Source of the DNA: Candidatus Woesearchaeota archaeon
Lineage (GTDB): Archaea > Nanobdellota > Nanobdellia > Woesearchaeales > WAPY01
Assembly (NCBI GenBank): GCA_049700835.1
Contig: JBNAUL010000001.1
Span: 308,043 to 372,042, forward strand
Reading direction: 5' to 3'
DNA length: 64,000 bases
Shown here: piece after piece, positions 1 to 34,919 of the stretch
Layout: every line of letters begins with the position of its first letter
How positions within the stretch are numbered: the first letter of the stretch is position 1
Position numbers and translations under genes: made by a program
Notes under the pieces: model-generated
The model's database searches: none
Seen by the model: the letters and a program-made list of their open reading frames with translations, nothing else
Told to the model about the DNA's origin: nothing

Positions 1-178
1 GTAATTTTGGTATGGTTGAGGTTTATTTGGATGGTTTGAGGTCTAGGGTTGATAGTGTTTGGAGGGGTTTGGGTAGGGTTGCTCCTGTTTTTGAGCGTCG
101 TTTGGTTTCTCGTGATGAAGTTTTGCGTAGTGTTGAGGAGGCTAGGAGGGAGAGGCAGAAAGCCATAAAAGAAGAAAA
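1..178 (+). repeat. Exact copy of 4456-4633 (T/G-wobble block; probably extends upstream of window)
   Basis: Direct base-by-base comparison, offset 4455. Confidence 0.95.
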
Positions 179-500
179 ATCTTCTGAAAAAGAAAAACAA
201 AAAGATAAAGAAAAGAAAAAGGAAAAGATAGTAAAACCTCTTGTTTTTGACAACGGCGCAATGGTTGGTTCAATAGAAGAATTATTAGACGCTTTACCTC
301 CGATGAGTGTTTCTGTGTTCAGTAAACATGTAAATCAGTCAAAGAACGACATTAAGGATTGGATTGAAAAGGAGTTTAAGGATGAGCAGTTAATAAAAGC
401 AGTTAGTGTTTTAACTAAAAAGGAGATGATAGACAACATAAAAAAATATTTAGAAGAAAAGAACAAAGATAAGAAAGAGGAAAAAGAAGAAAAGAAATAG
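1..500 (+). CDS. C-terminal part (5'-truncated by window) of a paralogous membrane-anchored HerA/VirB4-like ATPase, ending in a DUF5752-like domain
   Basis: nt 1-178 are identical to 4456-4633 of the downstream ATPase. The tail has a divergent DUF5752-like motif (VFDNG..VGSIEELL...FSKHVNQSKNDIKDWI). Confidence 0.8.
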   Translation, partial: NFGMVEVYLDGLRSRVDSVWRGLGRVAPVFERRLVSRDEVLRSVEEARRERQKAIKEEKSSEKEKQKDKEKKKEKIVKPLVFDNGAMVGSIEELLDALPPMSVSVFSKHVNQSKNDIKDWIEKEFKDEQLIKAVSVLTKKEMIDNIKKYLEEKNKDKKEEKEEKK

Positions 501-689
501 ATGTGCACATAAAAGGAACTCAGTGAAATCTAAATTTACTAATTTAAATTATTAAATTAACAAATCTAAATTTTATGTTTTTGTTCTCTTCAATCTTTTT
601 TTGGTTGTTACATTCATTTAAAATATTTAAAATCAAATTTTTAGAAACAGAACAATTGTGAATTTTAGCAATTGTGTAAGTAATACTTT

Positions 690-807
690 TACATACTTAG
701 TATGTATTAGTAAGTAAAGTAATTTTAAGCGTTACAATTATTATAACTTTTAAAAAAGAGATATAAAACAGAAACATTTATATATCAATATACATATTTA
801 GTATGTT
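690..807 (+). promoter_or_regulatory. Putative archaeal promoter with operator palindromes
   Basis: Perfect 8-1-8 palindrome TACATACT-T-AGTATGTA (690-706) and a near copy TACATATTTAGTATGTT (791-807) flank a BRE/TATA-like GAAACATTTATATA (771-784), upstream of two RHH genes. Confidence 0.5.
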
Positions 808-909
808 TTAGTATGATATTTCATTATGGGGTGATGCTCTATAAGAAAACAAGCGCGCGAGCAGGAAAAAAATGCTGCATATGAAAATAAGAATTCTAAA
901 AAAGATTCT

Positions 910-1164
910 TTGTACAGAATTAAAAAAAACCAAAGCATTGATTTCAATTTTGCAGATTTATTCAACGATGTAAATACAAAAAAAATCAATAATAAAAAGC
1001 GCAGTAAAAGAATAACAATTACAATAGATAAAAATCTGCTTAATTTTTTGGATCACCTTATTTCTAAGAGAATTTTTGCCAATAGGAGTCATGCTTTTGA
1101 ATTTTTAATAAGAAAGAGAACAGAATTTGAGAATGAAAGAGAGAATTACTATTACCTTAAATGA
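910..1164 (+). CDS. Ribbon-helix-helix (CopG/Arc/MetJ-like) DNA-binding protein; start uncertain
   Basis: KRITITIDKNLLNFLDHL...FANRSHAFEFLIR is a typical RHH pattern. Confidence 0.75.
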   Translation: MYRIKKNQSIDFNFADLFNDVNTKKINNKKRSKRITITIDKNLLNFLDHLISKRIFANRSHAFEFLIRKRTEFENERENYYYLK

Positions 1165-1297
1165 GGAACTGCTGGACTGGATAGATAACAAAATTAAGAA
1201 GAGAATTTTTGCCAATAGGAGTCATGCTTTTGAATTTTTAATAGCAAGATTGATGGAAAACAACAAGCTTCAGAGCGAAGATGAAAACAAGAGATAA
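1133..1297 (+). CDS. Second RHH protein, 54 aa (not in ORF track)
   Basis: Manual translation MKERITITLNEELLDWIDNKIKKRIFANRSHAFEFLIARLMENNKLQSEDENKR. It overlaps both neighbours and shares 45 identical nt with the first RHH (1066-1110 = 1199-1243). Confidence 0.8.
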   Translation: MKERITITLNEELLDWIDNKIKKRIFANRSHAFEFLIARLMENNKLQSEDENKR

Positions 1298-4200
1298 AAC
1301 CAAAGATTTAGGAAAAGGGAAAAACTTGAAAAATCTTAAAAAGCATTTTGACGAAGGCGGATTTAGGGCAACATTTTATGCCTTGCTGGCAGCAATACTT
1401 GCAATCCTTGCAATAATTGTTCTCATACATATTAAGAATTACATTGGATATATGGCACTTCAAACAAGAGCAGGTTCAATCTCTGAATTGAAGATTGACC
1501 TACGATTGCCAGCATCGATATGGAGCGGATTTTACGGTTTAGGGCTAATGGTTCCTGGATATACAGAACAACAACTTGATGTTGCAATTGGCAATACAAT
1601 TAAGAACAAGCACTTGGTTTTTGACTGCTTGAAATACGATGAAGAAAATCCTCCTGAAATTTATGCTTCAACCTCTCCTGTCATTCTCTGGGAAACACTA
1701 AGCCCAGCAACAACAGACATGGTTGACAATTACTTGGAAGTAAGCCCTGATTACATAATGTCAGGCACAAATACCTTCACAACGACTATGACAATAAGAT
1801 TAGGAGATAGAAACATAACAAACATTCCAGCAACACATACTAAAAAATTTGGAGCTCCTGACAGCATGCTCTTTGACATTGGAGTTTTGAGAGACGCAAA
1901 CAACAACTTAGTTTTTGTAACTCATGTTACAGACTATGTCAGGGGCTTTAACAACGAACTTGTAAACTATCAAATGCTACTTCCTGTAAAATCAGATACG
2001 ACACCTGTTTATTATTTCTTTAGAGACCCTTATGAGGAGTGTCCTGCAGGCCCAGCACCAGCAGTAAATACTACTTTGTATGGTTATGTTTTTGACAACG
2101 AAACATTGGAGGCATTAGCGAATGTTACAATAAGGATACAAGGAATAGAAGCCCTGACAGACGAGAATGGATTTTACAACATAACAGCATTGGACGGAAC
2201 TTATAACTTGTTTGGTTCAAAAGAAGGTTATCATAACTATATAACAACAATAAATTTGACACCTGACAACTCAAGCACTCCTGAGAGAGAAGACATAAAA
2301 GAATTCAACTTTACAATGCGAAAAATACATGGTCTTGAGTTTGGTAACGGGACGCTTAAAGGTATGGTAACAGATTCAGGTTCTAAACAGCCGTTAATCA
2401 ATGTTTCAATAATCATAGCAGGAATTTTAGTCTATACTAATACTTCAGGAGAATACGAAATAAACCTTACAGAAGGCAACCACACATTAATCGCTTTAAA
2501 ACAAGGATACAAAGATTTTTACAATTTTAGCGTTCCTGTAATAAGAAACAATGTTACAAATTACAATTTCTCAATGACCCTGTTGCCGCCACCGCAAGAA
2601 GCGCAAATCCAAAAGACAGGAACAACAGAATTCACTTCCAATGCCCCTCAAGTCCCTCCGCAGATACAGGAACCTATTGAGATAATAGACCACATAGTTT
2701 CAATGAGAATGATAGATGAGCAACTTAGAAAGGACTCTTTCATTGACAGATTGATGACTATAAAAAGTTACAAGAGAACAACAGCGCAAATAACATTGTC
2801 TGTTTTAGGAGATGTCGCTGATATGGTTCTGCTTGATAAATCAAAATTGATAATAGAACCACAAGGAAGCGAGAACTTAAGCATAAGATTGTTGGCAAAC
2901 AAAGAGCCAGGAATCTATGAAGGGGTTTTGGTCATGCAAGGTGATTTTGAGGATAGAATACCTATAAGAATTATTGTCTATGAAAAAGAGAGGTTGCCAA
3001 TTGAATCAATGCTTATAAAAGTAACTCCACTCAAAGATGTCATAAGCCCTGGAACTGATTTAAAGTTCAGGGTTTCATTAACTAATTTGTTGAAAGAACA
3101 GTACTACAATGTGACTTTGAAATACTATTTGATAAATGAAAAGACAAACGAATCAATATTCTTAGGAGATGATTATGAGATACTGCAGACCTCCTTATCA
3201 TTAATAAAGTCCTATAAAACAAATAGTACAATAGAAGAAGGTTTTTACAGAATTGAAGTTAAGACAGAATACTTAAACTTTGAATCCTATGCAAGTACAA
3301 TCATAAGAATAGCAAAACCATTCTACATGTATGCCCTGTTCGGCATTCTCCCTCTATGGCAATTGTTCCTGATAATTTTGGTGGGTTCTATATTGAGTTT
3401 TGCTTATGTTCGTTATCGTGTTTTTAGGAGGTCTAGGCTTAGGTATGGTGTTTCTGTTGATGTTAGGAGTTTGCGTCGTGTTTCTGATAAGTTGGGTTTT
3501 GTTGGTAAGGTTGCTGAGGTTGGTGTTCCTTTTTATTTTGATTTGAATTTGTTGTCTACTCATTGTATTGTTGCTGGTGCTACTGGTGGTGGTAAGAGTG
3601 TTGCTGCTCAGGTTTTTGTTGAGGAGTGTTTGAAGCGTGGTGTTGGTGTTTTGGTTTTTGATCCTACGGCTCAGTGGTCTGGTTTTTTGAGGGCTTGTTC
3701 TGATGTTAGGATGTTGGGTTTGTATTCTGGTTTTGGTTTGCGTAGGGGTGATGCTCGTGGTTTTCCTGGTAATGTTCGTTTGGTTAGGGATGCTAGGGAG
3801 GTTGTTGATGTTAGGCGTTTTTTGAAGGCTGGTGAGATTAATGTTTTTGTTTTGAGTAGGTTGGAGCCTGAGGATATTGATTTTTTTGTTGCTAATACTG
3901 TTCGTGAGGTTTTTAGGGCTGGTTTTGATGAGTTTGGTGGTTTGCGTTTTTTGTTGGTTTATGATGAGGTTCATCGTTTGTTGCCTAGGTTTGGTGGTTC
4001 TGGTGAGGGTTTTGTTCAGATTGAGCGTGCTTGTCGTGAGTTTCGTAAGTGGGGTGTTGGTGTTGTTTTGATTAGTCAGGTTTTGTCTGATTTTGTTGGT
4101 GAGATTAAGGCTAATATTAATACTGAGGTTCAGGTTAGGACTCGTGATGAGGGTGATTTGCAGCGTGTTCGTGAGAAGTATGGTGAGGAGTTTTTGAGGG

Positions 4201-5081
4201 GTTTGGTTAGGGCTAGTGTTGGTACTGGTTTGTTTGAGAATCCTGTTTATAATGGTGGTAGGCCTTTTTTTGTTAGTTTTAGGCCTTTGTTGCATAGTGT
4301 TTCTAGGTTGTCTGATGGGGAGTTGGATGCTTATGATCGTTTTAATGGTTTGGTTGATCAGTTGGGTTTTGAGTTGGATTCTTTGGAGGGTTTGGGTGTT
4401 GATGTTTTTGATTTGCGTTTGGAGTTGAGGTTGGCTTTGGATAAGTTGAAGGTTGGTAATTTTGGTATGGTTGAGGTTTATTTGGATGGTTTGAGGTCTA
4501 GGGTTGATAGTGTTTGGAGGGGTTTGGGTAGGGTTGCTCCTGTTTTTGAGCGTCGTTTGGTTTCTCGTGATGAAGTTTTGCGTAGTGTTGAGGAGGCTAG
4601 GAGGGAGAGGCAGAAAGCCATAAAAGAAGAAAAGAAGGCAAAGGGAGAAGAGGAAGCATCAGAAGAAGAATTTAAAGAAGAAACAACCGAAGAAACAGAA
4701 GAAAATAACAACAAAAAGGAAAATAAAGAAGAACAGAAAAATCAAGATGTCAATAAAGAAAATAAAAACCTTGAAAACCAGAATGAAAAAAATGAAATTA
4801 AACCTGATAAAATTGAACTTTTGAAAAAGGAAACAGAGCCGCAATTCTATTTTGTTTTGGAAAATGGAAAACAACTCAAGAGCATTTACGATTTAATTGA
4901 GGAATTAGAAATTATGAGTGATGATGTTTTTTATCATCATGTTAATGATTTTAAGAATGATTTTGAGAATTGGGTTAGGTTTGTTTTTTTGAACAATGAA
5001 TTGGCTGATAAGATTTCAAAAACCAAAACAAAAAGAGACATGTTAAAAGCGATGGGTGAGTATATTGGAAGAAGCAGTTGA
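1281..5081 (+). CDS. Membrane-anchored HerA/FtsK/VirB4-like (DUF87-type) ATPase with extracellular subunit-like and Ig/carboxypeptidase-regulatory-like domains and a C-terminal DUF5752-like domain
   Basis: N-terminal hydrophobic segment, two GxVxD..T..xxNVxI repeats, a TM near 3330-3410, Walker A GATGGGKS, VFDP, Walker B LLVYDEVH, REFRKWG, ISQ and HHVNDFKNDFENW. Confidence 0.85.
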   Translation: MKTRDKTKDLGKGKNLKNLKKHFDEGGFRATFYALLAAILAILAIIVLIHIKNYIGYMALQTRAGSISELKIDLRLPASIWSGFYGLGLMVPGYTEQQLDVAIGNTIKNKHLVFDCLKYDEENPPEIYASTSPVILWETLSPATTDMVDNYLEVSPDYIMSGTNTFTTTMTIRLGDRNITNIPATHTKKFGAPDSMLFDIGVLRDANNNLVFVTHVTDYVRGFNNELVNYQMLLPVKSDTTPVYYFFRDPYEECPAGPAPAVNTTLYGYVFDNETLEALANVTIRIQGIEALTDENGFYNITALDGTYNLFGSKEGYHNYITTINLTPDNSSTPEREDIKEFNFTMRKIHGLEFGNGTLKGMVTDSGSKQPLINVSIIIAGILVYTNTSGEYEINLTEGNHTLIALKQGYKDFYNFSVPVIRNNVTNYNFSMTLLPPPQEAQIQKTGTTEFTSNAPQVPPQIQEPIEIIDHIVSMRMIDEQLRKDSFIDRLMTIKSYKRTTAQITLSVLGDVADMVLLDKSKLIIEPQGSENLSIRLLANKEPGIYEGVLVMQGDFEDRIPIRIIVYEKERLPIESMLIKVTPLKDVISPGTDLKFRVSLTNLLKEQYYNVTLKYYLINEKTNESIFLGDDYEILQTSLSLIKSYKTNSTIEEGFYRIEVKTEYLNFESYASTIIRIAKPFYMYALFGILPLWQLFLIILVGSILSFAYVRYRVFRRSRLRYGVSVDVRSLRRVSDKLGFVGKVAEVGVPFYFDLNLLSTHCIVAGATGGGKSVAAQVFVEECLKRGVGVLVFDPTAQWSGFLRACSDVRMLGLYSGFGLRRGDARGFPGNVRLVRDAREVVDVRRFLKAGEINVFVLSRLEPEDIDFFVANTVREVFRAGFDEFGGLRFLLVYDEVHRLLPRFGGSGEGFVQIERACREFRKWGVGVVLISQVLSDFVGEIKANINTEVQVRTRDEGDLQRVREKYGEEFLRGLVRASVGTGLFENPVYNGGRPFFVSFRPLLHSVSRLSDGELDAYDRFNGLVDQLGFELDSLEGLGVDVFDLRLELRLALDKLKVGNFGMVEVYLDGLRSRVDSVWRGLGRVAPVFERRLVSRDEVLRSVEEARRERQKAIKEEKKAKGEEEASEEEFKEETTEETEENNNKKENKEEQKNQDVNKENKNLENQNEKNEIKPDKIELLKKETEPQFYFVLENGKQLKSIYDLIEELEIMSDDVFYHHVNDFKNDFENWVRFVFLNNELADKISKTKTKRDMLKAMGEYIGRSS
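3393..4633 (+). repeat. T/G-wobble block covering the whole ATPase domain; shared with upstream paralogue
   Basis: By manual reading all codons in 3393-4571 end in T or G. The last 178 nt are duplicated at 1-178. Confidence 0.85.
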
Positions 5082-5265
5082 TATTCCGGAATCAAAGTAT
5101 TTTGTTTTAAAAGACGGAAAAAGATTAGCTTCAATTCAAGAGTTAGTTGAAGCTTTAAGGGTTATAAGTGATGATGTTTTTTATCATCATGTTAATGATT
5201 TTAAGAATGATTTTGAGAATTGGGTTAGGTTTGTTTTTTTGAACAATGAATTGGCTGATAAGATT
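4917..5265 (+). repeat. 99-bp exact direct repeat (4917-5015 = 5167-5265) encoding the DUF5752-like core
   Basis: Direct comparison, offset 250; the first 25 codons all end in T/G. Confidence 0.95.
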
Positions 5266-5619
5266 GGCAAGTTTAAAACAAGAAATGATATCCTGCTGGA
5301 ACTGCAGAATTATGTTTTAAAAAATAAACAGAACAAGCAAGAAATAAATCAGATTAAAAAGAGCGATTTGCCAAAAGAAGATAAAAATCCAAAAATCCTA
5401 GAGTTGGAAACAAGATTAGAAAGCATTAGAAAGAGAATATCAGAACTTAGAAAGCAGGGTTTTGATACAAAAAATGCAGAACTTATGATTTTGATGGTTC
5501 CCCCAAGGATAAGGTTTGCAGAGATAACATGTAATGAAATTGATTTTTTCAAGGCAGAGCAGAGCATAAAGAATATTGAACTAGAACTGAAAGAAATTGA
5601 GAGTTCAAAACCAAACTAG
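5056..5619 (+). CDS. DUF5752-like domain protein with C-terminal helical region
   Basis: YFVLKDGKRLASIQELVEAL...FYHHVNDFKNDFENWVRFVF..ELADKI. Confidence 0.75.
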   Translation: MSILEEAVDIPESKYFVLKDGKRLASIQELVEALRVISDDVFYHHVNDFKNDFENWVRFVFLNNELADKIGKFKTRNDILLELQNYVLKNKQNKQEINQIKKSDLPKEDKNPKILELETRLESIRKRISELRKQGFDTKNAELMILMVPPRIRFAEITCNEIDFFKAEQSIKNIELELKEIESSKPN

Positions 5620-9600: not shown

Positions 9601-10671
9601 GAGATGGGGTTGATGTTGCTTATGAGTTAAAAGCAACAATACCTCCAAGTTTTACAATTTGGAACATAAGCAATTCTACAGGAGTTATTCCTGACTACAG
9701 CAATCAAACAAGAGGGCAAATAATAAGAGCTTATGCTTTGTGGAACCAAGTTATAAATCAATCGTACGCAGAACACAATGGTTTAGGAACACTATTGAAT
9801 TTTACAATAGACCCTCCTTATACCAATTCTTGGACAAACTACACCTTAAACACTACTGATACAACAATAATAAACACTTTAGGATTGATAAACATCTCAA
9901 TATGGGCTAAGAACAGGTACGGAATTTGGGCAAGAACAACCCCAACACTGCACTTTTATCTTTGGGCTTTGTTAAATATAACAAACATAAGCATAACAGA
10001 CGATTACATCAGCATTGGAGAAACAACAACAATCACTTGCGAAGTAAAAGATGCATATTTAAATATTCCAATAGGCAATTATAATGTTTCTTTTTATCTG
10101 AACAATTCTTTAATAGGTAGTTCTATTACAAATACTCTTGGCTTAGCAAGCATAAACTATACAGGAACAGTTGATGGGGTTTATAATGTAACCTGCAACA
10201 TAAGCAATGATTTTTCAAGATGGTATAAAGTTTCGTCAAGAAATTGGGCTAATGTTACATTAATAGTAACCTCTCAAGATGCAACTCCTCCAGTAATAAA
10301 TTATGTTTATGATTATCCAGATCCTGTTGCATATGATGGTATTGTAACAATAGGAGCAAATGTTACTGACAATGTAAATATTAGTACTGTTGTTGTTGAA
10401 ATAAATAATGTTAATTATACAATGAACTATGTTGAAGGAGATATTTGGAGTTATTTTTATAATGTTAGTAGTCTAAGCATCGGAACTTACAATTACACTG
10501 TTTATGCAAATGACAGTGCTGGTTTAAAAGCAGATCCAGTTAAGGGAAACTTCACAATAACAAACCAATTGTTTGTTAAAGTTGATACTGATAAACAATC
10601 GTACGAGTTAGGGGAAAATGTTAGTGTTTTTGTTAATGTTTCTGTTTCTGGTGTTGGTCAGGATGTTGGTG
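6672..10671 (+). CDS. Giant secreted surface protein 1, N-terminal part (signal/TM, MG2-like, WNGxxW beta-propeller repeats, Ig-like); start probably later than 6672
   Basis: Hydrophobic LMLLFILIFLLIATL segment, TKKPIYKPGE motif, repeated (I/V)WNG(T/S)xW blades; the frame is open into the N gap. Confidence 0.8.
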
Positions 10672-10771
10672 NNNNNNNNNNNNNNNNNNNNNNNNNNNNN
10701 NNNNNNNNNNNNNNNNNNNNNNNNNNNNNNNNNNNNNNNNNNNNNNNNNNNNNNNNNNNNNNNNNNNNNNN
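10672..10771. other. Scaffold gap (100 N) inside giant gene 1, probably a collapsed repeat
   Basis: Open frames on both sides; the flanks carry the T/G-wobble signature. Confidence 0.9.
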
Positions 10772-13700
10772 CTGTTGATGAGAATTTTTATGCTGTTTAT
10801 TACGGCAATCCAAATGCGACAAACGCAACTTATCCAATATTTTACAGGGGAACGATTTTTTATGATGCTTACACAACAAATCTTAACAACTATTCAAATC
10901 CAACAGGAGATTGGAGCATTTACTTGCAGCAGGCAAGAGCTTATGCATGCGATCCGTCAGATTTAACAACACTTACAGACCTTATAGATTTAAGCAGTTG
11001 GTATTCTGCAACAATAACCTTCCAATACAGAGAAGAAGGGACTTTAGAAGCAGACGATTGCTTGTATTATGGAATTTATTCCAATGGAAGTTGGATTGTT
11101 GATGAGCAGAATGTTTTCTGCGATGATGTTGGAGCAACATTCTTAACATACAATATTAATTTAAATTATTCTGAGATGAGTCCTGATTTTAGATTAAGGT
11201 ATAGGTGCAGGAGTTTTAGCGGAGCAGGAGAATATCTCTACATTGACAATTTGAATATAACAGGTTATAGATTGCAACATCCTCTTGTTAGTTCAAGAGT
11301 TGGTAATGTTGAAAAGTTTGTTTATAGCATAAGCAACGATTCTATTGGCAGTAATGGACTTTGGAATTGGTTATTTAATACTATAAACCAAAGTTATGGA
11401 TTATACTCAGTTATAGCATTTTCTAATGAAACAGGCTATCTTCCTGCATACAATTTTACTCACTTCAATATTTATCAAATAGTTCCGCCAACAGTTTATC
11501 TTATAACTCCAGAAAATAATTCTTATTATAAAACTACAAACATAACATTTAATTGTTCTGCATCCGACAACACAAGATTAGTAAATGCAACTCTGTATGG
11601 AAATTGGGGTGGTTGGCATGCAAACGAAACAGCAAGTTTAGGAGGAACTTCAAATTATACAATATTCACAAAAACATTGCAGGAAGGAACTTATGTTTGG
11701 AATTGTCTTGTTTACAATGTTAATAATTACAGCAGTTTTGCATTTCAAAACAACACATTCACAATAGATTTGCAAGAACCAATTGTTAATTTAATAAGCC
11801 CTGAAGATAATTATTCCACAAACAATTCTGTTGTTGAATTTACTTACAATGTTACTGACAACGCTTTAATCAAAGAGTGTTATTTAATCATTGACGATGA
11901 TATTATTCAAACAGACACAACAATTACAACCAATGCTAACCAAACATTTATAGAATCTTTAACTAATGGATTGCACAATTGGACTGTAAATTGCAGCGAC
12001 ATGGCAGGAAACACTTACAAAGCGCTTCCAAGAAAAATAAATGTTTCAGCAACTCCAATACTTTGGGATAGGAGATGGTATGAAACCTCAACCTTTAACT
12101 GCAATAACGAAACTTGCTATATAAGTTTAGCAAATTCAAGAGATCCAACTGAAAACCAAGTATACTATTCAAGCGTAAATTCAAATCAGTTGGTAACAGC
12201 ACTAAGTGCAGTATCGCCTTATTTTGGAAGCAATGGATTATTAATAACTCAAAACACTCAAGTTTCGTTCAGCGGGGAATTCTTAACAAACCCCGCTAAC
12301 AAGGGATTAGTTTCATGGTATTTGTATTATACTACAAAAGATAGCGATTATTTAATATGCAATGCTACAAACATTGCTCTATCTCCAACAACAGTTGCTT
12401 CATGCAATTGGACAGGTAGCGATTTAAAGTTGAACAGCACCAACAGATTTAAACTCGTAATAACTTACAACAATACATTTTCATCAGCAGTTTCATTTAC
12501 TCATACATGGGATTATTTAGAACTCTCTTATTTTGAACTTTCAAACATGATAGTGCTTGGATTTTTAAAAGCAAACCTATTGTTGCCAGAAAACAATTTA
12601 ACAATAAACCAAAACCAAGTTTTTAACTTAACATGCAATGTAAGTTGCGATTTTGGAACTTGCAGGAATGTAAGGGTTTATGCTCAGTACAATGATTCAG
12701 AAACAAATTGGACTAATATTGGAAGCTCTGGAAATTTGGTATTAAATTCTGGAGAAACAAATCCACATACAATTGGAGATGTAAATCAAACAAGCATAAA
12801 CACAACATTTGCCATAAAAGGAAATCTTGTTTCAACCAATAATGTAAGATGCTTTGCAGTTTCCGATTACTCAAACACAACAACAGAGAAAAGAACAATT
12901 TATGTTGGAGATTCTACTCCTCCACAAATAACTATTTCAAACCCTGAAAACAATTCTTGGCATAATCAAGCGATACTTGAAATCAAGTATGTGCCTTTTG
13001 ATAACAACGGAATAGTTAATTGTTCTTTGATAGTTGATGGAAATCTAAATCAAACTAATAGCACAATTGCTAATAACGAACAAAATAATTTTACAATATC
13101 CTTATATGCTGAAGGAATGCACAATTTAAGCATAACATGCTTTGATGTCTCTAACAATCAAGGAAACTCAACAACAATATACTTTTATTATGATAAAACA
13201 AGCCCTACGGTTAATATTTTAAGCCCTGAAAACGAAGTGGAAATTAATAAAAACTTGATTACTTTTAATTTTACAGCAGTTGATACTTTAGCTTATAATC
13301 TAAGCTGTAATTTAACAATAGACAATGAAGTAAAGCAATACAACATAACTGCTCAAAACAATACTCTAACAAGCATTACAGAAATAATTTCTTTAGGAAA
13401 TCATTATTGGAATGTCACTTGTTATGATTTAGCAGGAAACTATAATACAAGCCAAACATGGATGTTCACTATTTTAGATACAGCACCTTATGTTGTTCTT
13501 ATAACTCCGGAAAATAACTCTTGGGATAATACAGGAAACATAACCTTTTACTTCAATGTTTCAGAAAACAATGCTTTAGAGAATTGCTCGCTAATACTAA
13601 ACAATGTAATAAACCAAACAAAGAATTCTACAGAATTAATAAATGGGGGACAGAATAATTTTACAATCACTAATCTTCAAAATGGCGTCTATAATTGGAG

Positions 13701-17387: not shown

Positions 17388-20300
17388 ATGATGAAAGCAA
17401 AGTTGATGCACAAAAACAAGAATAAAAATCAGAAGAAAGCATTAGAATTTTTATCATCGGTCCTGTCATTAGTTTTATTTTCATTTTTAGTAATGTTCAG
17501 CATCTTAGCGCAAATAAGAACAGTGTTTTCTGAATTAGAGCAATTAAACAATAGAGTAATAATGTTGGATAAAAAATACTACCAACTAAATGAAACAGTA
17601 GAGATAAAACTTAAATATTTAATAAGAGACGCAGAACTATTCATAAAAACTCCAACCCACAACTATAAATTTTTAGGAAGTTTAGAAGAACGGATAAAAT
17701 TTGTTTTAGAGGAAGAAGGTACTTATGAAATTGTATTGATGAAAAATCAAAAGGTTATAGATAATGTTGCTTTTAGCGTGAATAAGACAAAAACATATTC
17801 TGAAATAATAACAAACAATGAAACAAAAGAAAAAGAGTTTGGCAAAACAGCACAACAAATTACAGATCTAAACTGTATAAAAATAGAAAAAGAAAATTTT
17901 TTCTTAGGAGAAGCAGTTAAAATTCAAATCAATAAAAACATAATGAATGATGAAGATTTAAAAGGAAAATTAGGATTAAAGATAATAACAAATGAAGGAA
18001 CTTACTCCATTTTAGGTGAGATTAGTGAAGAAGTAAATTTTATTCCTTCAATAGAAGGAGAAAGCTTGATAGTGCTTTATCATATCAACGGCACAGCAAT
18101 ATGCGAGAGAACATTTTTTGTAATTTCAAAATTAAAAAAGGCAGGAGAAAACTTATCAAAAACAATAGGCATTGCAGAACAGAATGAAACAATCAAAGAA
18201 AAAAATGAAAGTCAGTTGTTCATCTCTAAAAATGAATCATTAAAGTTAAGAGAAAAAGAGGATTTAATCAAGAGCAAATTAAGGGTTAGGATAAAAAACA
18301 AGAAAAACGAACTTTCAGATGCTGTTCTGAATTTTGAGTTCTTTAATGAAACAGAAAATACTGAAGCAAATCAAGATAAACCGCAAGAAAAATTTAGGAG
18401 AATTGTTTTAAACATAAATAACTCTGAATTTAAAAACATAATCATAGAAAATACAATTATGAAAGAAAACTCAAATTTAACATTTGAGGAACTTTCTATT
18501 GAAAACAAAAAAATTATAAAAGACAGGTTTGCTAGAAAAACATTCTTAATTAATTATGAAAAAGCAAACTTTTCAAACTTGATAATAAGAGCAGAAGCAA
18601 CAGGCAATGAACTTTGGGTTTGCGAGGATTGGGATTTAATTAATAATTCTTGCAATGAGGAACCAAAAAAAGTTCTTGATCTAAATTTAGGAGAAGAATT
18701 TGAATTAAACATATCAAAAGAACAAATAATAGAAGGAAGAAACATTCTTTATTTTGAAACAATAACAATACTTAATCCAATAACATTTTTAAGAGATAAT
18801 GAAGTTTGGGTTGTTGAATTCAATACAACAGGCATTGCAGATTTAAGAATTAGCTCAAATAACAGCAACTGGGCAGAAATAAACAATGATTTAGAAGAAA
18901 CTATTGATGAAATGAAATTCCTTGATTTAAAATGCGGCGATAAATCATTAAAAGATAAAATTAAAGTTGTTGATTATGAAGGAAACATTAAAGGATTATT
19001 AGAAATACGGGAAAATGAAAGTTTTAGAATACAAAAATTTATTGTGGAGAATTATAGTTGCAACGAAACATCTTACTTTAGTAATTTAATGCTTAAAGCA
19101 GGATATGCTGTTTTAAGATTTGACTTTGGAGAACAAACTGCATACGCTATAGATCCGTTAGTAAATATCTCAAATACTAATATAACATCTTTAGATATGG
19201 CTATTTTAGATGAGGAAACTTTTGTTGTTGCTTATTGTGATGATACTAATGATAGGGTTGCTTTTAGGGTTTATAATACTAATGGTAGTTTGGTTTCTGG
19301 TGAGGTTGTTGTTGATTCTAGTTTGGCTGTTAGTGCTTGTGATTATACTAGTGTTTCTGTTTCTGCTTTTAATAGTTCTCATTTTGTTGTTGGTTGGGTT
19401 GATAGTGGTAGTTCTTATGTTAGTTTTGAGGTTTTTGATGTTTTTGGTAATGTTTTTGGTAGTAGGGTTGATGTTGATACTACTGCTGGTACTTCTAGGA
19501 GTGTTTCTGTTTCTGCTTTTAATAGTTCTCATTTTGTTGTTGGTTGGTATGATCAGCCTGATGCTGATGCTACTTTTAGAGTTTATACTAGTTCTGGTAG
19601 TGCTGTTACTAATGCTATTGATGTTGATACTAATGCTGGTACTTGTAATGCTGTTAGTGTTTCTGCTTTGGATAATGTTAATTTTGTTTTTGGTTATTAT
19701 GATATGGCTTCTTCTGATGTTACTTTTAGGACTTATACTAGTTCTGGTGGTGCTGTTAGTGCTATTACTGATGTTGATACTGATGCTGGTGTTGGTTCTT
19801 TTAGTGTTTCTGTTTCTGGTGTTAATAGTTCTCATTTTGTTATTGGTTGGTTTGATCAAACTTCTGGTTATGTTAGGTTTAGGTTGTATTCTGTTTATGG
19901 AACTATTGTTGGCACTGAGGTTGTTCCTGATACTGCTGTTGGAACAACAGCATCAGGAGTAATGCAGGATGTTGCTGCTATTAACCAAACGAGTTTTGTT
20001 TATTCTTGGTTTGATAGTATAGCAGATGTTGGAACTTTTTTCAGCACTTATTCAACATTTGGGGTTACTACGCCAACAGCGATTGTTAGCAATATTTCTG
20101 TACTGAATAATTCATTAAAATATCATGCTGTTGCAGGTTATCAACCATCAACCAACATTGGTTTTTGCCAAGGAAACAAGTTTGTGATTGCATTTGTAAA
20201 CACAACAGGATTTTATTGGAAAACATATTTTACTAATGGAGCAGAATGGGATGGAATTTGTCCTGATTTAACTCCACCAAATGTTACTTTGATTTATCCC

Positions 20301-26433: not shown

Positions 26434-27375
26434 GTGGCTGAAATGTTCTTTTCAAGAAAGAAGAGGAAGGTTGAAACCCAAGAGGAAGAGAAGGAACTTC
26501 CAATGCTGGCAAAGGATTTGCTTGAGAAAACACGAACCATAGAAACAATACAGATGCCTATAGAACAGGAAAAGAAGGAAAAAAAAGAAAAGAGAAGGTT
26601 TTTCTTTTTTAAAGCAAAGGAAAACAACAAAGAAAAACAAAAAGAAGAAAAAACAAAAGACGCTTTAAAAGATAAGGAAAAGTTTGAAGTAAAACCGATT
26701 AAAGAAGAACAAAAAAAAGAGGAAAAAACAGAAACAAGAGAGTTTAAGACGCAGGAAATAAAGAAAGAACTTAAAGAAGAGATGGAACTTGATTTCGAAG
26801 ATTTAATATCTTCTAATAAAGGTTTTTTTGCAAAACTTTTAGAAAACATCTATGAAAAATCCTTCGAGGAATTAGCAAAAAAGGACTTGATTGAAGAAAT
26901 AAGGAATTATTTTGCATCAGAAAAGAACAAGAAAGAGATTGAATACGAGAAAAAAGCGGCTTATTTGAGATTGAAGAACTTGCTCTTGGAGCTTTCAAAA
27001 CTTGAGGAGAAATGGGAAAATCAAAATATAGTTTTAGAACAATACAAAGAACAGATAAAAACAACAGAAGAAAGAATAAGAGAACTCTCAGAAATAATAA
27101 AGAGGGAAGCGCAAAAGCTCAGTTTGGAAGCAGAAATACCTTCTGAAAAGGAATTCGTTCTAAACGATGGGAGAAGATTAAGAAGCTTGAAAGAGCTATT
27201 GGAAGCTTTGAAAACAATGAGCGATGATTTATACAAGCATCATGTTAATAGTTCAAGAAATGATTTTGCAAATTGGGTAAAAGATGTTTTTAAGAAAGAA
27301 TCATTAGCAGAGAAAATAAGAAATGCAAAAGCAAAGGAAGAAACGATAAAAATACTAAGTTCTGAATTGGAATAA
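26434..27375 (+). CDS. Charged coiled-coil protein with C-terminal DUF5752-like domain
   Basis: EFVLNDGRRLRSLKELLEAL..MSDDLYKHHVNSSRNDFANWVKDVF. Confidence 0.75.
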   Translation: MAEMFFSRKKRKVETQEEEKELPMLAKDLLEKTRTIETIQMPIEQEKKEKKEKRRFFFFKAKENNKEKQKEEKTKDALKDKEKFEVKPIKEEQKKEEKTETREFKTQEIKKELKEEMELDFEDLISSNKGFFAKLLENIYEKSFEELAKKDLIEEIRNYFASEKNKKEIEYEKKAAYLRLKNLLLELSKLEEKWENQNIVLEQYKEQIKTTEERIRELSEIIKREAQKLSLEAEIPSEKEFVLNDGRRLRSLKELLEALKTMSDDLYKHHVNSSRNDFANWVKDVFKKESLAEKIRNAKAKEETIKILSSELE

Positions 27376-29388: not shown

Positions 29389-29586
29389 ATGCCTAAAGAG
29401 AAGGAATTTGTTAAGGTTGTTTGGCAGGAAACTCCTAATTCTGTTAGGGTTATTCAGGGATACTATTTTGACGAAGGAGATTTCATAAGAGTAAAAGGCG
29501 ACTATAAAGAAGTGCTAATTAGAAAGAGCAGGATAATAAGCATTGAGCAGAAACAACCAACAAAGGGTGAGAAAAATGGAAAATAA
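29389..29586 (+). CDS. Small beta-rich protein, possibly Sm/Hfq-like fold
   Basis: AGGTGA RBS; VKVVW...VIQG...DFIRV...EVLIRKSRIISIE resembles Sm1/Sm2 strands; duplicated at 31279. Confidence 0.6.
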   Translation: MPKEKEFVKVVWQETPNSVRVIQGYYFDEGDFIRVKGDYKEVLIRKSRIISIEQKQPTKGEKNGK

Positions 29587-30301: not shown

Positions 30302-30311
30302 GGTGATTTTC

Positions 30312-31226
30312 ATGTTTAACTTGCAAACAAAACAAGCAATGAAGAGAAAGATAATTTTAATTTTTATGTTGGTTGCATTTTTGCTCTTCATTAGCCCAAG
30401 GATTTTTGCAGTTAATTCTACTACAGTAAGCTCAAGAGTCAATGTTACAAATGTCGCTCCAAGCATTGTTTCTATAACTGTTAATAGGGTTGGTTATGCT
30501 CCTGGAACAAACATTGATTTAATACCAGGAACAATAACTCCTGTTGAATGCAATGGAACAATAAACGATACTAATGGTTATGCTGACATCCTAAATGCTT
30601 CTGCTGTTTTTTATGATAATAGTGTTGCAACCCCAACAAGCTCAGACAATAATGAAACACATTACACCAATAGCAGTTGTACTTTAAGTGCTGGCTCAGG
30701 ACTAAGCAAGAATTTCCACTGCTATTTTGGGGTTTTATACTATGCCAACAATGCAAGTTGGACTTGCAATGTAACTGCTTATGATGCCGATGGAGCTTAC
30801 AATTCCTCAACAAACTCAACAAACATCAATATTTTGGTTGCTTTGAATGTTTCAAACACAACAATAGATTATGGCAATATGGCACCTCTTGAGACATCTT
30901 CAAGTTCTGTGATAGAAAACATAACGAATCATGGAAATGTTAAACTTGATTTAACTCTTAATGGAACTGACATGACATGCCCAAATCCTTACCCAGCAAT
31001 TCCTGTTGGCAACCAACATTATAATGTAACAGGAACAGATCAAGCTTATGGACTAATGACAGCGCTAACCTCATCCCCTGTAACAGTCACTGCTTTTGAC
31101 CTCCTAAAGAGAAACGACACTGATGCCTTAAGAGCAATAAGGATGACCTATTGGAGGATAAGCATCCCTGCAGGGCTGAAAGGCGTTTGCCAAGGAAACA
31201 TAACATTTGCTGTTTTGGTTGGTTAA
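30312..31226 (+). CDS. Secreted two-domain Ig/pilin-like protein, family B
   Basis: AGGTGA RBS, signal peptide, ending YWRISIPAGLKGVCQGNITFAVLVG; paralogous to the C-terminal half of 32913-34919. Confidence 0.75.
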   Translation: MFNLQTKQAMKRKIILIFMLVAFLLFISPRIFAVNSTTVSSRVNVTNVAPSIVSITVNRVGYAPGTNIDLIPGTITPVECNGTINDTNGYADILNASAVFYDNSVATPTSSDNNETHYTNSSCTLSAGSGLSKNFHCYFGVLYYANNASWTCNVTAYDADGAYNSSTNSTNINILVALNVSNTTIDYGNMAPLETSSSSVIENITNHGNVKLDLTLNGTDMTCPNPYPAIPVGNQHYNVTGTDQAYGLMTALTSSPVTVTAFDLLKRNDTDALRAIRMTYWRISIPAGLKGVCQGNITFAVLVG

Positions 31227-31278: not shown

Positions 31279-31455
31279 ATGTTCAAGGAAAAGGAATTTG
31301 TTAAGGTTGTTTGGCAGGAAACTCCTAATTCTGTTAGAGTTATTCAGGGATACTATTCTAACGAAGGAGATTTCATAAGAGTAAAAGGCGACTATAAAGA
31401 AGTGCTGATAAAAAAGGACACAATAATAAGCATTGAAAAGAAGCAGAAGAAATAA
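31279..31455 (+). CDS. Second copy of small Sm-like protein, 58 aa (not in ORF track)
   Basis: Manual translation MFKEKEFVKVVWQETPNSVRVIQGYYSNEGDFIRVKGDYKEVLIKKDTIISIEKKQKK; 31291-31406 matches 29401-29516 with 3 mismatches. Confidence 0.75.
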   Translation: MFKEKEFVKVVWQETPNSVRVIQGYYSNEGDFIRVKGDYKEVLIKKDTIISIEKKQKK

Positions 31456-31669
31456 GATTATTTTTCCAAGAACTTGTTCACTAAAAATTTTTAAATTCAC
31501 AATTAATTTTTGTTTTTTAGAAAACTTTTATTCTTCTGTATCAAGAAATTTTTTAGTTTTTTATTTTAACCAAATCTTTAAATTATTTTTTATTTTTTAT
31601 TATTTTTTATTTTTTGCGCACTTTTATATTCCAATTTTAATTTTTTTAATTATTTAAATTTGCTTTTTT

Positions 31670-32785
31670 TTACTTTTCCTCAAACTCAGCAACAACTTCC
31701 GTGTGTTTTGTTTGAGGGAAAAAATCAAAAAAGGCAACAGATTTTAGATCATAAGAATTAAATTTTTTAATATCCTTTGAGAGTTCTATTGGATTGCAGG
31801 AAATGTAAATTATTTTCTTTGGTTTTAATTCTTTAATAGCATTCAACGCTTTAGGATGAATCCCAGACCTTGGAGGATCAATTATAACATAAACATTGTT
31901 TTTCTCAACACTCAACCTCTTAATTTTTGAAGCATCAAGATTAAAAACGCTTATGTTTTTAGCATTATTTATTTTTATGTTTTCAATTGCAGACTCAACA
32001 CAACTCTTATTATTTTCCACTAAAAAAACATGCTTGAAAAAATCAGAGTTTATTATTCCAAAAGTCCCAACTCCAGAGTATAAATCTAATAAAAAAAGTT
32101 CTTTTGTTTTTATTCTTGTTTCATTCATTATTAAGTTATTAACATACAAATGCATTTTTTTAGCCATAGAATAATTGTTCTGGAAAAAACCCTGCACTGA
32201 AAAATGAAAAATCTTATTTAAAAGATTAATGCTTAATTTAGCATTTCCTTTTGCAACAAAAAAATCATCAGAAATACTAACATCAGTGTTTTCAGGAACA
32301 AAAGTAACAACAATGTTTTGAGCGCTTGAAATTTTTGAATACTCTCTTATTCTTTCAACAGCAGCCCTTATTCTTGCAGAATTAGAGTTAAGTACAAAAC
32401 TTATTGATGATTCATTAGCAACTCTTACAACAGCATACCTAAAAGTTCCTGAATTATTTTCAACATCAAAATAATCAAGATCCTTAAAAAAATCCGTAAT
32501 TTCTTTTAACAATTCATTAATTCTGTTTTCAGCAATATAGCAATACTCAACATCTATAATCTTTTTCCAATCCCTTTTCTTTCTTAAACCCAAACCGTTT
32601 TTATGAAAGATAAAATCCATCCTGTTGCGGTAATTAAATGGTTTATCATAAAAAACTTTTATTGAATCCTTATCAACACTAAGCAGTTTTGAAAGCAATT
32701 CTGTTTTTTTATCTATTTGAACTTTATATTCAAGATTTTGTAAACTGCAACCCCCGCAATTCTTAAAATAAGGGCAAACAATCAT
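31670..32785 (-). CDS. RlmD/TrmA-family RNA (uracil-5)-methyltransferase
   Basis: CPYFKNCGGC Fe-S motif, YRNRM, FFQ, DLYSGVG, DPPR, YISCNP, FFPQTKHTE. Confidence 0.9.
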   Translation of the reverse strand: MIVCPYFKNCGGCSLQNLEYKVQIDKKTELLSKLLSVDKDSIKVFYDKPFNYRNRMDFIFHKNGLGLRKKRDWKKIIDVEYCYIAENRINELLKEITDFFKDLDYFDVENNSGTFRYAVVRVANESSISFVLNSNSARIRAAVERIREYSKISSAQNIVVTFVPENTDVSISDDFFVAKGNAKLSINLLNKIFHFSVQGFFQNNYSMAKKMHLYVNNLIMNETRIKTKELFLLDLYSGVGTFGIINSDFFKHVFLVENNKSCVESAIENIKINNAKNISVFNLDASKIKRLSVEKNNVYVIIDPPRSGIHPKALNAIKELKPKKIIYISCNPIELSKDIKKFNSYDLKSVAFFDFFPQTKHTEVVAEFEEK

Positions 32786-32912
32786 AAAAAACAAGAAAAC
32801 AAAAAACAATAAAAAACTTTTGAAATTTCATAAAACATTCGCAAAACAAAATTTAAATTAAAATATTATAAAAACTTTTTTAAACAAAACAAGAATAATA
32901 AAATATGAAATT

Positions 32913-34919
32913 ATGAGCAAACAAAAAACAAACAAAAACAAGCAGGAAAATAAATCAACAAAAAATGCTCTTAAAAAAATAATTTTTGTAAGTTACTTTA
33001 TTGAAACTTTAATCATAATCTTCTTTTTCAATCCATTATTAGTTTCAGGAGTAACAACAACCTTCTCTAATAATCAAATTACATCTCTATCTTTAGCAGC
33101 CTTAACAAGAAACACTTTTGTTGTTGCTTATTGTGATGATACTAATAATAGGGTTGCTTTTAGGGTTTATAATACTAATGGTAGTTTGGTTTCTGGTGAG
33201 GTTGTTGTTGATTCTAGTTTGGCTGTTAGTGCTTGTGATTATACTAGTGTTTCTGTTTCTGCTTTTAATAGTTCTCATTTTGTTGTTGGTTGGGTTGATA
33301 GTGGTAGTTCTTATGTTAGTTTTGAGGTTTTTGATGTTTTTGGTAATGTTTTTGGTAGTAGGGTTGATGTTGATACTACTGCTGGTACTTCTAGGAGTGT
33401 TTCTGTTTCTGCTTTTAATAGTTCTCATTTTGTTGTTGGTTGGTATGATCAGCCTGATGCTGATGCTACTTTTAGAGTTTATACTAGTTCTGGTAGTGCT
33501 GTTACTAATGCTATTGATGTTGATACTAATGCTGGTACTTGTAATGCTGTTAGTGTTTCTGCTTTGGATAATGTTAATTTTGTTTTTGGTTATTATGATA
33601 TGGCTTCTTCTGATGTTACTTTTAGGACTTATACTAGTTCTGGTGGTGCTGTTAGTGCTATTACTGATGTTGATACTGATGCTGGTGTTGGTTCTTTTAG
33701 TGTTTCTGTTTCTGGTGTTAATAGTTCTCATTTTGTTATTGGTTGGTTTGATCAAACTTCTGGTTATGTTAGGTTTAGGTTGTATTCTGTTTATGGAACT
33801 ATTGTTGGCACTGAGGTTGTTCCTGATACTGCTGTTGGAACAACAGCATCAGGAGTAATGGTATCAACAGGAGCGAGTTCAAACCAAAAAATAATCTTTT
33901 CATGGCATGACACAACAACAGATGTTGGAGTTGCTTTAAGAACTTACAACCTTGATTTAACTCAATATTCAAGCGAAATTCCAGTGCAAAGCAATTCATT
34001 AAGATACAACGCTTTAACAGGTTATCATCCTGCAACAGGAATTAGAATTTGTGATGGAAATTTTGTAATAGCAGTTGTAAATTCAACAACCCAAGCATTC
34101 TTCAGAACTTATTATGCGAATGGAACAGAATGGAATGGAACATGCTCTAATTCAGCGCCAAACATAACAAAAATTTATATAGATGACGAGATAACAAACC
34201 CTAGTGGGGAGATTGATTTAACAGCAGGAAGTTCAAAAATAGTTTATTGCAATGGAACAATAAGCGATTTAGAAGGTTATGATGATATAAAGAATGTTTC
34301 AGCAGTTCTGTATGCTTCTGGAAGCGGAGTTTTGCCAACTGATTCTGAGAACAACAACACGCTTTACAAAAATAACACTTGCTCTCTATCATCAGGGTTT
34401 GAAACAACAAAGAAGAACTTTAGTTGCGCTTTTAATGTTTTGTACTATGCTAATAATGGAACTTGGACATGCAATGCAACAACATATGATAATAGCAATG
34501 CTTATTCAAGTTCAACAAACACTACAAAAATAAATATTTTGGTTGCTTTGAATGTTTCAAATGCAATAATAGATTATGGAATCTTGGGTCCAGGAGAAAC
34601 AAGCCCTTCATCTTCCCAACTAACAATAACAAACCTTGGTAACATAAAAATTGATTTAGTGCTTAACGGCACAAACATGAGTTGCAATCCTATTGGTTCA
34701 ATCTTTGTTGAGAACCAACACTACAATATTACAGGAACAGACCAAAGCTATGATTTAATGAGAGCTTTAACATTAACTCCTTTCACAGCAACAGACTTTG
34801 ATTTAGATAAGAGAGTAACAGCAGAATCAACAAGAACAACATATTGGCGCATAAGAATACCTGCAGGAGTAAAAGGATTTTGCCAAGGAAACATAACTTT
34901 AGCCGTGCAAGCAGGATAA
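32913..34919 (+). CDS. Secreted adhesin-like protein: beta-propeller module plus family B Ig/pilin-like domains
   Basis: Signal/TM, propeller shared with giant protein 2, ending YWRIRIPAGVKGFCQGNITLAVQAG. Confidence 0.85.
   Translation: MSKQKTNKNKQENKSTKNALKKIIFVSYFIETLIIIFFFNPLLVSGVTTTFSNNQITSLSLAALTRNTFVVAYCDDTNNRVAFRVYNTNGSLVSGEVVVDSSLAVSACDYTSVSVSAFNSSHFVVGWVDSGSSYVSFEVFDVFGNVFGSRVDVDTTAGTSRSVSVSAFNSSHFVVGWYDQPDADATFRVYTSSGSAVTNAIDVDTNAGTCNAVSVSALDNVNFVFGYYDMASSDVTFRTYTSSGGAVSAITDVDTDAGVGSFSVSVSGVNSSHFVIGWFDQTSGYVRFRLYSVYGTIVGTEVVPDTAVGTTASGVMVSTGASSNQKIIFSWHDTTTDVGVALRTYNLDLTQYSSEIPVQSNSLRYNALTGYHPATGIRICDGNFVIAVVNSTTQAFFRTYYANGTEWNGTCSNSAPNITKIYIDDEITNPSGEIDLTAGSSKIVYCNGTISDLEGYDDIKNVSAVLYASGSGVLPTDSENNNTLYKNNTCSLSSGFETTKKNFSCAFNVLYYANNGTWTCNATTYDNSNAYSSSTNTTKINILVALNVSNAIIDYGILGPGETSPSSSQLTITNLGNIKIDLVLNGTNMSCNPIGSIFVENQHYNITGTDQSYDLMRALTLTPFTATDFDLDKRVTAESTRTTYWRIRIPAGVKGFCQGNITLAVQAG
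33114..33860 (+). repeat. 747-bp T/G-wobble beta-propeller module, copy 2
   Basis: Offset 13896 from 19218-19964. Confidence 0.95.

Follow-up and report, generated by a model that had tools for sequence, protein, structure and literature searches.

In a 64-kb stretch of the genome of a Candidatus Woesearchaeota archaeon, a tiny symbiotic archaeon (GenBank assembly GCA_049700835.1, contig JBNAUL010000001.1, positions 308,043 to 372,042; the whole stretch is called the window and its own numbering is used throughout), several protein-coding modules shared by paralogous genes are written almost exclusively with codons ending in T or G. Briefly, the third position is T where this is synonymous and G elsewhere. 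This T/G rule holds for 957 of the 966 codons inside the blocks versus 7,910 of the 16,902 codons outside (0.468), the background being the 34 open reading frames (ORFs) taken as genes out of 52, with 18 shadow, antisense or end-fragment ORFs excluded. The rule acts at the level of nucleotides rather than of tRNAs, is confined to the blocks, persists where neighboring synonymous sites are saturated, and is accompanied by concerted evolution in three lineages. We know of no mutation, repair or selection process that would explain it. On balance, we favor the view that the blocks are gene-conversion tracts, in which recurrent conversion between paralogous modules carries a strand-asymmetric bias in the conversion step, and we infer that conversion causes the bias. 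The best reading is a variant of biased gene conversion and concerted evolution, with a different, one-strand bias.

Tracts of T/G-ending codons

The longest tract lies in the gene of P0001, a protein with two CarboxypepD_reg domains, a transmembrane (TM) helix, a HerA/DUF87 ATPase domain, a K/E-rich linker and a DUF5752-like tail. It starts just past the TM helix and takes in the entire cytoplasmic HerA-like domain (Table 1). The original prediction, made from the letters of the window, had estimated about 390 codons of this ATPase without A or C at the third position; 393 consecutive ones were counted (third positions 3395-4571), a run with a probability of ~1e-130 at the background frequency. 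Upstream lies a tandem paralogue, P0002 (800 aa), to whose C-terminus the ORF at 3-500 corresponds, the order of the two tandem genes being N2-tract-C2 followed by N1-tract-C1 (window 1-5081). The exact copy claimed for the end of this tract is real (1-178 equals 4456-4633), with one exception to the rule among the 52 codons of 3-158. The same can be said of the 99-nucleotide (nt) repeat in the DUF5752 region, in which 4917-5015 equals 5167-5265 and codons 1 to 25 all end in T or G, with no exceptions, and of a propeller-like module of 241 codons with four exceptions, only one of which (AGA) falls, as had been stated, in the first 213. The two copies of this module differ by a single base at 19251 (G/A, codons GAT/AAT). 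A further block, absent from the original prediction, lies in the giant surface-protein gene at 6672-17229, where an assembly gap splits it, and is probably a repeated module that the assembler did not resolve; a search for its content among longer proteins gave 12 matches, the best one 46% identical and none close.

The weakest case is a pair of small ORFs (29389 and 31279), in which codons 7 to 23 contain one exception in copy A and two in copy B out of 17 (chance ~5e-5 per site), followed by ~60 nt that are near-identical and normally coded. This pair, the 5' half of which had been described as largely converted, is only weakly so, and the rest is identical in normal codons. The label "Sm-like" given to the pair is unverified, as no Sm domain was found by Pfam.

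Outside the blocks, the frequency of T or G at the third position ranges from 0.385 to 0.616 per gene, and the longest run is 15 codons. P0001 outside its tract is at 0.430, the same-strand neighboring genes at 0.39-0.51, and all other genes on the plus strand at 0.385-0.546. The jump in composition is abrupt at the tract edges. A strand skew of the whole gene or transcription unit is therefore not what is seen, since the skew stops within a gene and the neighbors are normal. The diverged DUF5752 copy near 27220, proposed earlier as an internal control, served as such, its proportion of T/G-ending codons being normal (Table 1), and the DUF5752 tail of the upstream paralogue (~250-400) has normal codons too.

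Table 1. Positions of the tracts, their tails and the comparison segments in the window
Feature	Position	Strand	Remarks
ATPase conversion tract, T/G rule	3393..4613	+	407 codons, 1 A/C-ending (GAA 4572), 2 G-ending four-fold
3' tail of ATPase tract, identical in copies, normal codons	4614..4633	+	AAA GCC ATA AAA GAA GAA AA = 159-178; divergence beyond
End of upstream paralogue's ATPase tract (P0002-type)	1..178	+	T/G-only codons 3-158, then 20-nt normal tail
Short DUF5752 tract, copy a	4917..5015	+	T/G rule 4917-4991, then 24-nt identical normal-codon tail
Short DUF5752 tract, copy b, gene 5056-5619	5167..5265	+	T/G rule 5167-5241, then 24-nt tail
T/G block split by 100-N gap 10672-10771	10617..10800	+	18 T/G codons before gap, 9 after
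Propeller-like module, copy 1, 2886-aa surface protein	19218..19964	+	T/G rule 19218-19940, then 24-nt identical normal tail
Propeller-like module, copy 2, 668-aa protein (32913-34919)	33114..33860	+	T/G rule 33114-33836; equal to copy 1 except for 1 base
Weak partial T/G segment, small ORF 29389-29586	29407..29457	+	Partner 31297-31347, ORF 31279
Control, diverged DUF5752 paralogue	27187..27344	+	63% identical to 4884-5041; 27/53 T/G-ending codons
Host gene P0001, 1266 aa	1281..5081	+	Pfam and translation

Tract edges and concerted evolution

Over a stretch of 414 residues, P0001 and P0002 are identical; their N-termini are unrelated and their C-termini differ. A similar arrangement is found in a relative (72% identical), in which P0007 and P0008, a tandem pair on one 14.9-kb contig, share 356 identical residues, with ~25% identity upstream. 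In the window, in this pair and in an independent Woesearchaeota contig, L001 (described below), the copies in one genome resemble each other more closely than their orthologues (100% versus 95.8% to L001 for P0001/P0002, and 100% versus 72% to the window for P0007/P0008), which in three lineages indicates concerted evolution. The boundaries are sharp: identity begins and ends within one or two codons, and the flanks are non-homologous or ~25% identical.

On the 5' side, the T/G rule and the identity between copies set in at the same codon in all three tract families. At the 3' side, identity runs past the rule for 20, 24 and 24 nt in normal codons, again in three out of three families, and these identical tails may be recently converted flanks. 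The few A/C-ending exceptions cluster towards the 3' end as well (codon 394 of 407 in the ATPase; codons 121, 214, 228 and 232 of 241 in the propeller-like module). Moreover, P0007 and P0008 are K-rich directly after their shorter tract, whereas the homologous positions of the window lie inside the longer tract and are K-free, so the composition follows the local tract edge. No shared motif was recognized by eye in nine boundary contexts.

The original prediction had tied the codon bias to segments kept identical between paralogues, and this holds, with diverged paralogues being normally coded. A point against the original prediction, which had spoken of duplicated segments, is that the diverged repeats of the window lack the skew, an outcome that fits a process tied to ongoing homogenization, not to duplication as such.

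A rule at the level of nucleotides

The codon set of the tracts amounts to about one codon per two-base box (GCT, TGT, GAT, GAG, TTT, GGT, CAT, ATT, AAG, TTG, AAT, CCT, CAG, ACT, GTT and TAT), with two boxes each for arginine (CGT and AGG) and serine (AGT and TCT). Four-fold boxes end in T, with only two G-ending codons in the ATPase tract and none in the propeller tract, and two-fold purine boxes end in G. Leucine is encoded by TTG 46 times and by CTT once, so that T over C at the first position outweighs T over G at the third. This preference points to a nucleotide-level rule (T>G>>A,C) instead of a wobble or tRNA rule. For arginine (CGT 23, AGG 25; the serine counts being AGT 9 and TCT 14), the two codons are placed equally on ancestral-K and ancestral-R columns, which indicates that the two boxes are equilibrated.

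The bias is not limited to the third position. G and T make up 63.8% of codon positions 1 and 2 inside the tracts versus 46.0% outside, and the ATPase tract as a whole consists of 43.7% T, 34.5% G, 14.1% A and 7.8% C (G+T 78%, GC skew +0.63, AT skew -0.51). Thus, describing the segments as stripped of A/C-ending codons was correct but understated the effect, given that positions 1 and 2 and the amino acid composition are shifted also.

A mechanical consequence of NNK codons (third base G or T) is that other frames are left open, and the in-register antisense frame of the tracts contains no stops. Long antisense or +1-frame ORFs accordingly cover 3354-4295 (-), 19206-19859 (-), 33102-33755 (-), 19210-19962 (+) and 33118-33858 (+), as well as 7648-8883 (-) inside the tract of L001, and gene callers could annotate these as genes. 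Overlapping antisense genes as an explanation for the pattern were rejected, the open frames being a trivial outcome of such codons.

Persistence of the rule in an independent assembly

One locus was returned from 116 pattern matches, on the public metagenome-assembled genome contig JAWBOW010000026.1 of a Woesearchaeota (L001, 13,383 bp). Its ATPase tract has 402 of 402 consecutive interior codons ending in T or G. It differs from the tract of the window by 30 codons, all in frame, of which 17 change the amino acid and 13 are synonymous (96.6% nucleotide and 95.8% protein identity). Six of the 13 synonymous differences are at the tract ends, and the other seven are box switches (AGG/CGT five times, AGT/TCT once, TTG/CTT once), with no simple third-position change among these interior ones. 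In four flanking gene segments, the proportion of synonymous differences (pS) between the window and L001 is 0.58-0.70 and the synonymous divergence (dS) 1.1-2.0, which is saturated, versus a pS of 0.047 and a non-synonymous divergence (dN) of 0.031 in the ATPase tract. Third positions have thus been held tighter than the protein in both lineages. The rule is being upheld rather than inherited, over a time in which neutral sites elsewhere were fully randomized. The claim that the pattern is biological and filtered by selection is supported, and the independent assembly shows it too.

The short DUF5752 tracts of L001, which lie in adjacent genes, match each other at 24 of 25 codons and differ from the identical pair of the window. 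Five of the 25 codons end in A or C (CAC, GAA, ATA, AGA and GTA, versus CAT, GAG, GTT, AGG and GTT in the window), and no identical 3' tail follows. This looks like a younger stage of conversion.

L001 (6820-9381) and an 842-aa protein, P0003, encoded on a 65-kb contig and 100% identical to window sequence, share a further architecture, N2-tract-C1. This is either the exact product of unequal recombination between the two tandem tracts or an assembly collapse across them.

Protein-level shift and its cost

At 106 of 327 well-defined columns, the ATPase tract departs from the residue that prevails among 111 homologues of normal composition. The changes are directional, with 17 K to R (versus one R to K), 12 I to V (versus no V to I) and four Y to F, along with M to L/V/F, N to D/G, A to G/V and P to S/A. 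Near-invariant columns are included, with K in 92-95 or I in 110 of the 111 homologues. At the protein level, P0006 to P0010, which come from NCBI, ENA and JGI sources and are 68-72% identical, show the same shift limited to the domain (K 3-6%, R 10-12%, I 2-3%, V 11-13%), with normal N-termini. Within the family of 260 domains, only the 10 of the clade P0001-P0010 are shifted, with an index of 2.9-5.3 versus at most 1.6 in the others (median 0.96). The propeller-like module has 18.7% V and 1.7% I versus 8-14% V and 3-9% I in homologues, which are intrinsically K-poor and rich in S, T, V and D; this shift is suggestive only.

Using P0006, P0007, P0009 and P0010 as references, 14 of the 17 amino acid differences between the window and L001 could be polarized. 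On the window lineage, A or C was lost in three cases, gained in one and unchanged in three, and on the L001 lineage A or C was gained in five, lost in one and unchanged in one. Four of the five gains restore the residue of most normal homologues (K, I, I and E). Selection pushing back against a drive would leave such a picture, but the numbers are small. Overall, the bias is found also at non-synonymous sites against the protein optimum, both in the K to R and I to V changes and in these apparent reversions.

Proposed mechanism and competing explanations

In the mechanism that we propose, recurrent conversion would keep coding modules identical between paralogous genes of one genome, namely the HerA-like ATPase domain, the 241-codon propeller-like module, the 25-codon DUF5752 piece and at least one more hidden by the assembly gap. 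Within the tracts only, a strand-specific pressure would remove A and C from the sense strand, placing T where allowed and G where T would alter the protein, while purifying selection would keep the essential residues. The pressure may be a by-product of the conversion step itself, for instance of error-prone copy synthesis, of damage to the strand that is single-stranded during conversion, or of biased correction of heteroduplex mismatches, and would amount to a transmission drive akin to GC-biased gene conversion, with a one-strand preference T>G>>A,C. A hierarchy of A to G, C to T and G to T (or A to T) changes on the sense strand would reproduce the rule, T being the end point of the changes and selection on the protein barring it from two-fold purine sites. 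Such a hierarchy is reminiscent of lesions in single-stranded DNA opposite which A is then inserted. As leads only, mismatches containing G and T are substrates of the archaeal NucS/EndoMS, and RecA-family proteins have a preference for GT-rich single strands. The original prediction had likewise proposed homogenization with a directional one-strand bias, which is also our best explanation, the rule having survived saturated synonymous divergence.

Several observations weigh against this mechanism. The DNA identity of the two ATPase tracts of the window is seen for 178 nt, and the rest is deduced from protein identity. Among the relatives, the DNA seen is that of L001, the shift in P0006-P0010 being at the protein level. 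The purity (no A or C among 402 L001 sites) demands a very strong bias, and the CGT/AGG switches, among which no CGG intermediate is seen, require particular rate ratios in a stepwise model. Two short non-coding repeats next to the second assembly gap lack the G/T skew. All tracts are in plus-strand genes of one co-directional cluster, with no minus-strand example in the window or L001, so the sense strand and the replication strand are inseparable. Finally, no candidate enzyme was found in the 64-kb window or in L001.

A related possibility, which we hold to be unlikely, is that dedicated machinery of this Woesearchaeota clade targets chosen modules, rewrites them repeatedly on one strand and spreads the result to every paralogue. 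A reverse transcriptase (RT), a deaminase/translesion pair or a G/T-specific mismatch nuclease could do this. This would be a programmed, homogenizing counterpart of the diversity-generating retroelements (DGRs), and the signature would mark exchangeable cassettes that reshuffle giant surface proteins. A rival explanation, to which we give a low probability, is RNA-templated conversion, in which the mRNA of a module or a dedicated transcript would be copied by an RT encoded elsewhere in the genome, template A and C being miscopied or the RNA deaminated, G and U being copied faithfully, and the cDNA overwriting all copies. The bias is indeed on the sense strand in every tract, the 5' edges are sharp, the non-skewed identical 3' tails (20, 24 and 24 nt) could prime or anchor, and DGRs occur in DPANN archaea. 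However, a Pfam scan of 42 ORFs from the window and L001 recognized no RT domain, and the window gave no Rfam match; the short tract of L001 has no identical 3' tail; the exceptions gather at the 3' end, where the drive seems to wane, not to begin; and no template/variable pair differing at particular bases is present, the copies being identical. The original prediction was right that the window holds no RT gene, and no deaminase was found in its 64 kb either. Its candidate of a DGR-like RT is not supported, with no RT in the window or L001, copies identical rather than adenine-variable, and tracts of up to 1.2 kb covering a whole ATPase domain. Its other candidate involved deamination, which in its simple form (A to G, C to T) predicts G at formerly A-ending four-fold sites, where T is found, and was rejected as sufficient on its own.

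Selection for a G/T-rich sense strand as a functional feature of the DNA or RNA, with the identity of the copies following from the feature, also seems improbable to us. Such a strand could be a recombination handle that swaps N- and C-terminal parts of surface proteins, or give an R-loop-prone or structure-poor transcript. Consistent with this, the rule was kept through saturated divergence, the ATPase tract is strongly skewed in both GC and AT, the host genes encode surface or host-interaction proteins, and the N2-tract-C1 architecture of P0003 and L001 is the recombinant expected from the tandem tracts of the window. Yet a collapsed assembly may have produced this architecture, keeping 402 of 402 synonymous sites would take considerable selection on each of them, near-invariant residues are altered, some of which L001 appears to revert, and no common edge motif was seen. 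The idea of G-quadruplexes was rejected, as no G3+ motif occurs on either strand of the whole window.

Given the abrupt change in composition at the tract edges and the 96.6% identity of the tract between genomes with saturated flanks, a foreign origin was considered, in which the modules were imported in frame from an extremely G/T-skewed replicon (e.g., a single-stranded or rolling-circle one) and the pattern is a legacy, not ongoing. We consider it very improbable: blastn found nothing that matched the ATPase tract among 50,697 phage and 72,556 plasmid records, the tract edges differ between species with composition tracking the local edge, the short tract is part-converted in L001 and fully converted in the window, the shifted domains group as a single clade within the host family, down to 68% identity, and a tract whose synonymous sites are fixed by the rule should in any case show high nucleotide identity. 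There is hardly any likelihood of an artifact (assembly or polishing error, computational back-translation or synthetic DNA), in spite of a codon set of nearly one codon per box and of a draft whose scaffolding left two gaps, one of which splits a block. The independent public assembly has the tract with 30 in-frame codon differences, and the domain-limited shift recurs in proteins from three sequence sources. A back-translated or synthetic origin was rejected on the amino acid differences of that assembly and on the use of two boxes each for Ser and Arg, the choice of which is largely common to species and unlike a back-translation table. Equally remote is translational selection, i.e., domains tuned to G34 and C34 tRNAs. 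The third position is the cleanest signal, but a T-preferring wobble rule favors CTT and is contradicted by 46 TTG to one CTT; positions 1 and 2 and the amino acid composition are shifted as well, and the genes for DNA ligase, pyruvate:ferredoxin oxidoreductase and acetate kinase are at 0.48-0.57 T/G at the third position.

Comparison with known systems

The closest parallel to biased conversion between paralogous modules is GC-biased gene conversion, which favors G:C pairs symmetrically on both strands. In both, the composition change is tied to conversion tracts with sharp local boundaries, all sites are hit whatever the fitness effect, the amino acid content is shifted, and the drive is opposed by selection. 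The difference is that here T is preferred and C is down to 7.8%, on one strand only, with synonymous sites more than 99% saturated; a symmetric G:C bias is not what is found, four-fold sites ending in T and not in G or C. Repeat-induced point mutation of fungi is likewise a mutational signature specific to duplicated DNA, but it acts as C to T on both strands, yielding AT-rich repeats with destroyed reading frames. In the window, frames are open over 407 and 241 codons, A and C are both removed, G is kept or enriched and the copies are identical, so that neither C to T changes on both strands nor inactivated copies are observed.

DGRs share the polar, sense-strand, base-specific rewriting of a coding segment. 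Here, however, Pfam found no RT close to the targets, no template/variable pair differing at adenines exists (the copies differ by at most one base), and the tracts reach 1.2 kb versus ~0.1 kb in DGRs, whose outcome is diversity instead of homogeneity. The skews of genes on the leading strand (e.g., in Borrelia) and of animal mitochondria also give G/T-rich sense strands, G/T-ending codons and enrichment of Val, Gly, Phe and Cys-type residues; those are moderate and replichore- or genome-wide, whereas the present one is near-absolute and stops within a gene, with same-strand neighbors normal. With the immunoglobulin switch regions targeted by activation-induced deaminase (AID) and with surface-variation systems, the tracts have in common repeated segments, a G-rich non-template strand, recombination between copies and surface or interaction genes. 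Those systems involve non-coding switch repeats or variable cassettes, while the tracts encode conserved functional domains, lack G-quadruplex motifs and come with no identified deaminase. Full-text literature searches, as far as the texts were accessible in part, brought up nothing on T/G-only codon tracts or on strand-asymmetric conversion in archaea.

Implications

If conversion drives the rule, this would be the first case known to us of strand-asymmetric biased conversion fixing nearly every synonymous site, and a conserved ATPase domain would be measurably degraded by the drive. It would also provide a natural system for studying the processing of recombination intermediates in DPANN archaea, which to our knowledge lack much of the standard repair toolkit, and one in which a transmission drive could be measured against protein selection. 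Dedicated rewriting machinery, if true, would be categorically new. In practical terms, the tracts cause breaks or collapses in metagenomic assemblies (one tract of the window contains a gap, and another assembly has a chimeric gene model of 842 aa), yield long spurious antisense ORFs, mimic horizontal transfer in codon-usage screens and render dS meaningless. As the signature consists of long NNK runs in a normal genome, it is trivial to scan for and its distribution could be quickly established.

Genomic context and other repeats

The window is part of a scaffolded draft, with a GC content of ~31% and two gaps of 100 N each. The best matches of its proteins are in Candidatus Woesearchaeota (DPANN archaea). 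According to Pfam, its first 42 kb are a co-directional cluster of surface-type genes, including the tandem pair of HerA/DUF87 ATPase genes (the extracellular N-termini being CarboxypepD_reg or other ones), DUF5752 tails and giant Ig-like/CARDB proteins. Beyond these come housekeeping genes (DNA ligase, pyruvate:ferredoxin oxidoreductase and acetate kinase), and the window therefore is chromosomal, with no obvious mobile element. No tRNAs and no Rfam families were found in it.

The HerA/DUF87 ATPase domain occurs C-terminally in very dissimilar proteins of up to 6253 aa, typically after a TM helix and before a DUF5752 tail. These surface proteins, anchored in the membrane and with the ATPase on the cytoplasmic side, appear to be a large uncharacterized family of DPANN archaea. 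In P0001, a low-complexity Lys/Glu/Asn-rich linker (4614-4800) stands directly 3' of the ATPase tract, and Arg gives way to Lys exactly at the tract end (RRERQ, then KAIKEEKK).

Around the second gap (56687-56786), 56627-56686 and 56837-56896 are 97% identical, and 56787-56841 equals 57298-57352 (100%); these short non-coding direct repeats probably reflect either overlapping scaffold ends or a minor duplication between genes. In the 668-aa propeller protein, the C-terminal half (34242-34906) is paralogous to a 307-aa ORF (30303-31226), with patches of 74-90% identity at a constant offset of ~3700 nt in normal codons, and thus the T/G propeller module adjoins an ordinary, normally coded, diverged duplication. 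A 63-nt motif recurs seven times at ~564-nt spacing in two giant surface-protein genes (13000-15894 and 21852-23087); its copies, 60-75% identical, are diverged internal domain repeats in normal codons that do not follow the T/G rule. Lastly, the ORFs 29543-30301, 59218-60012 and 62364-63080, for which Pfam gave no match, are paralogous, with a conserved core of 87 nt (29771-29857, 59482-59568 and 62550-62636) at 62-78% identity.

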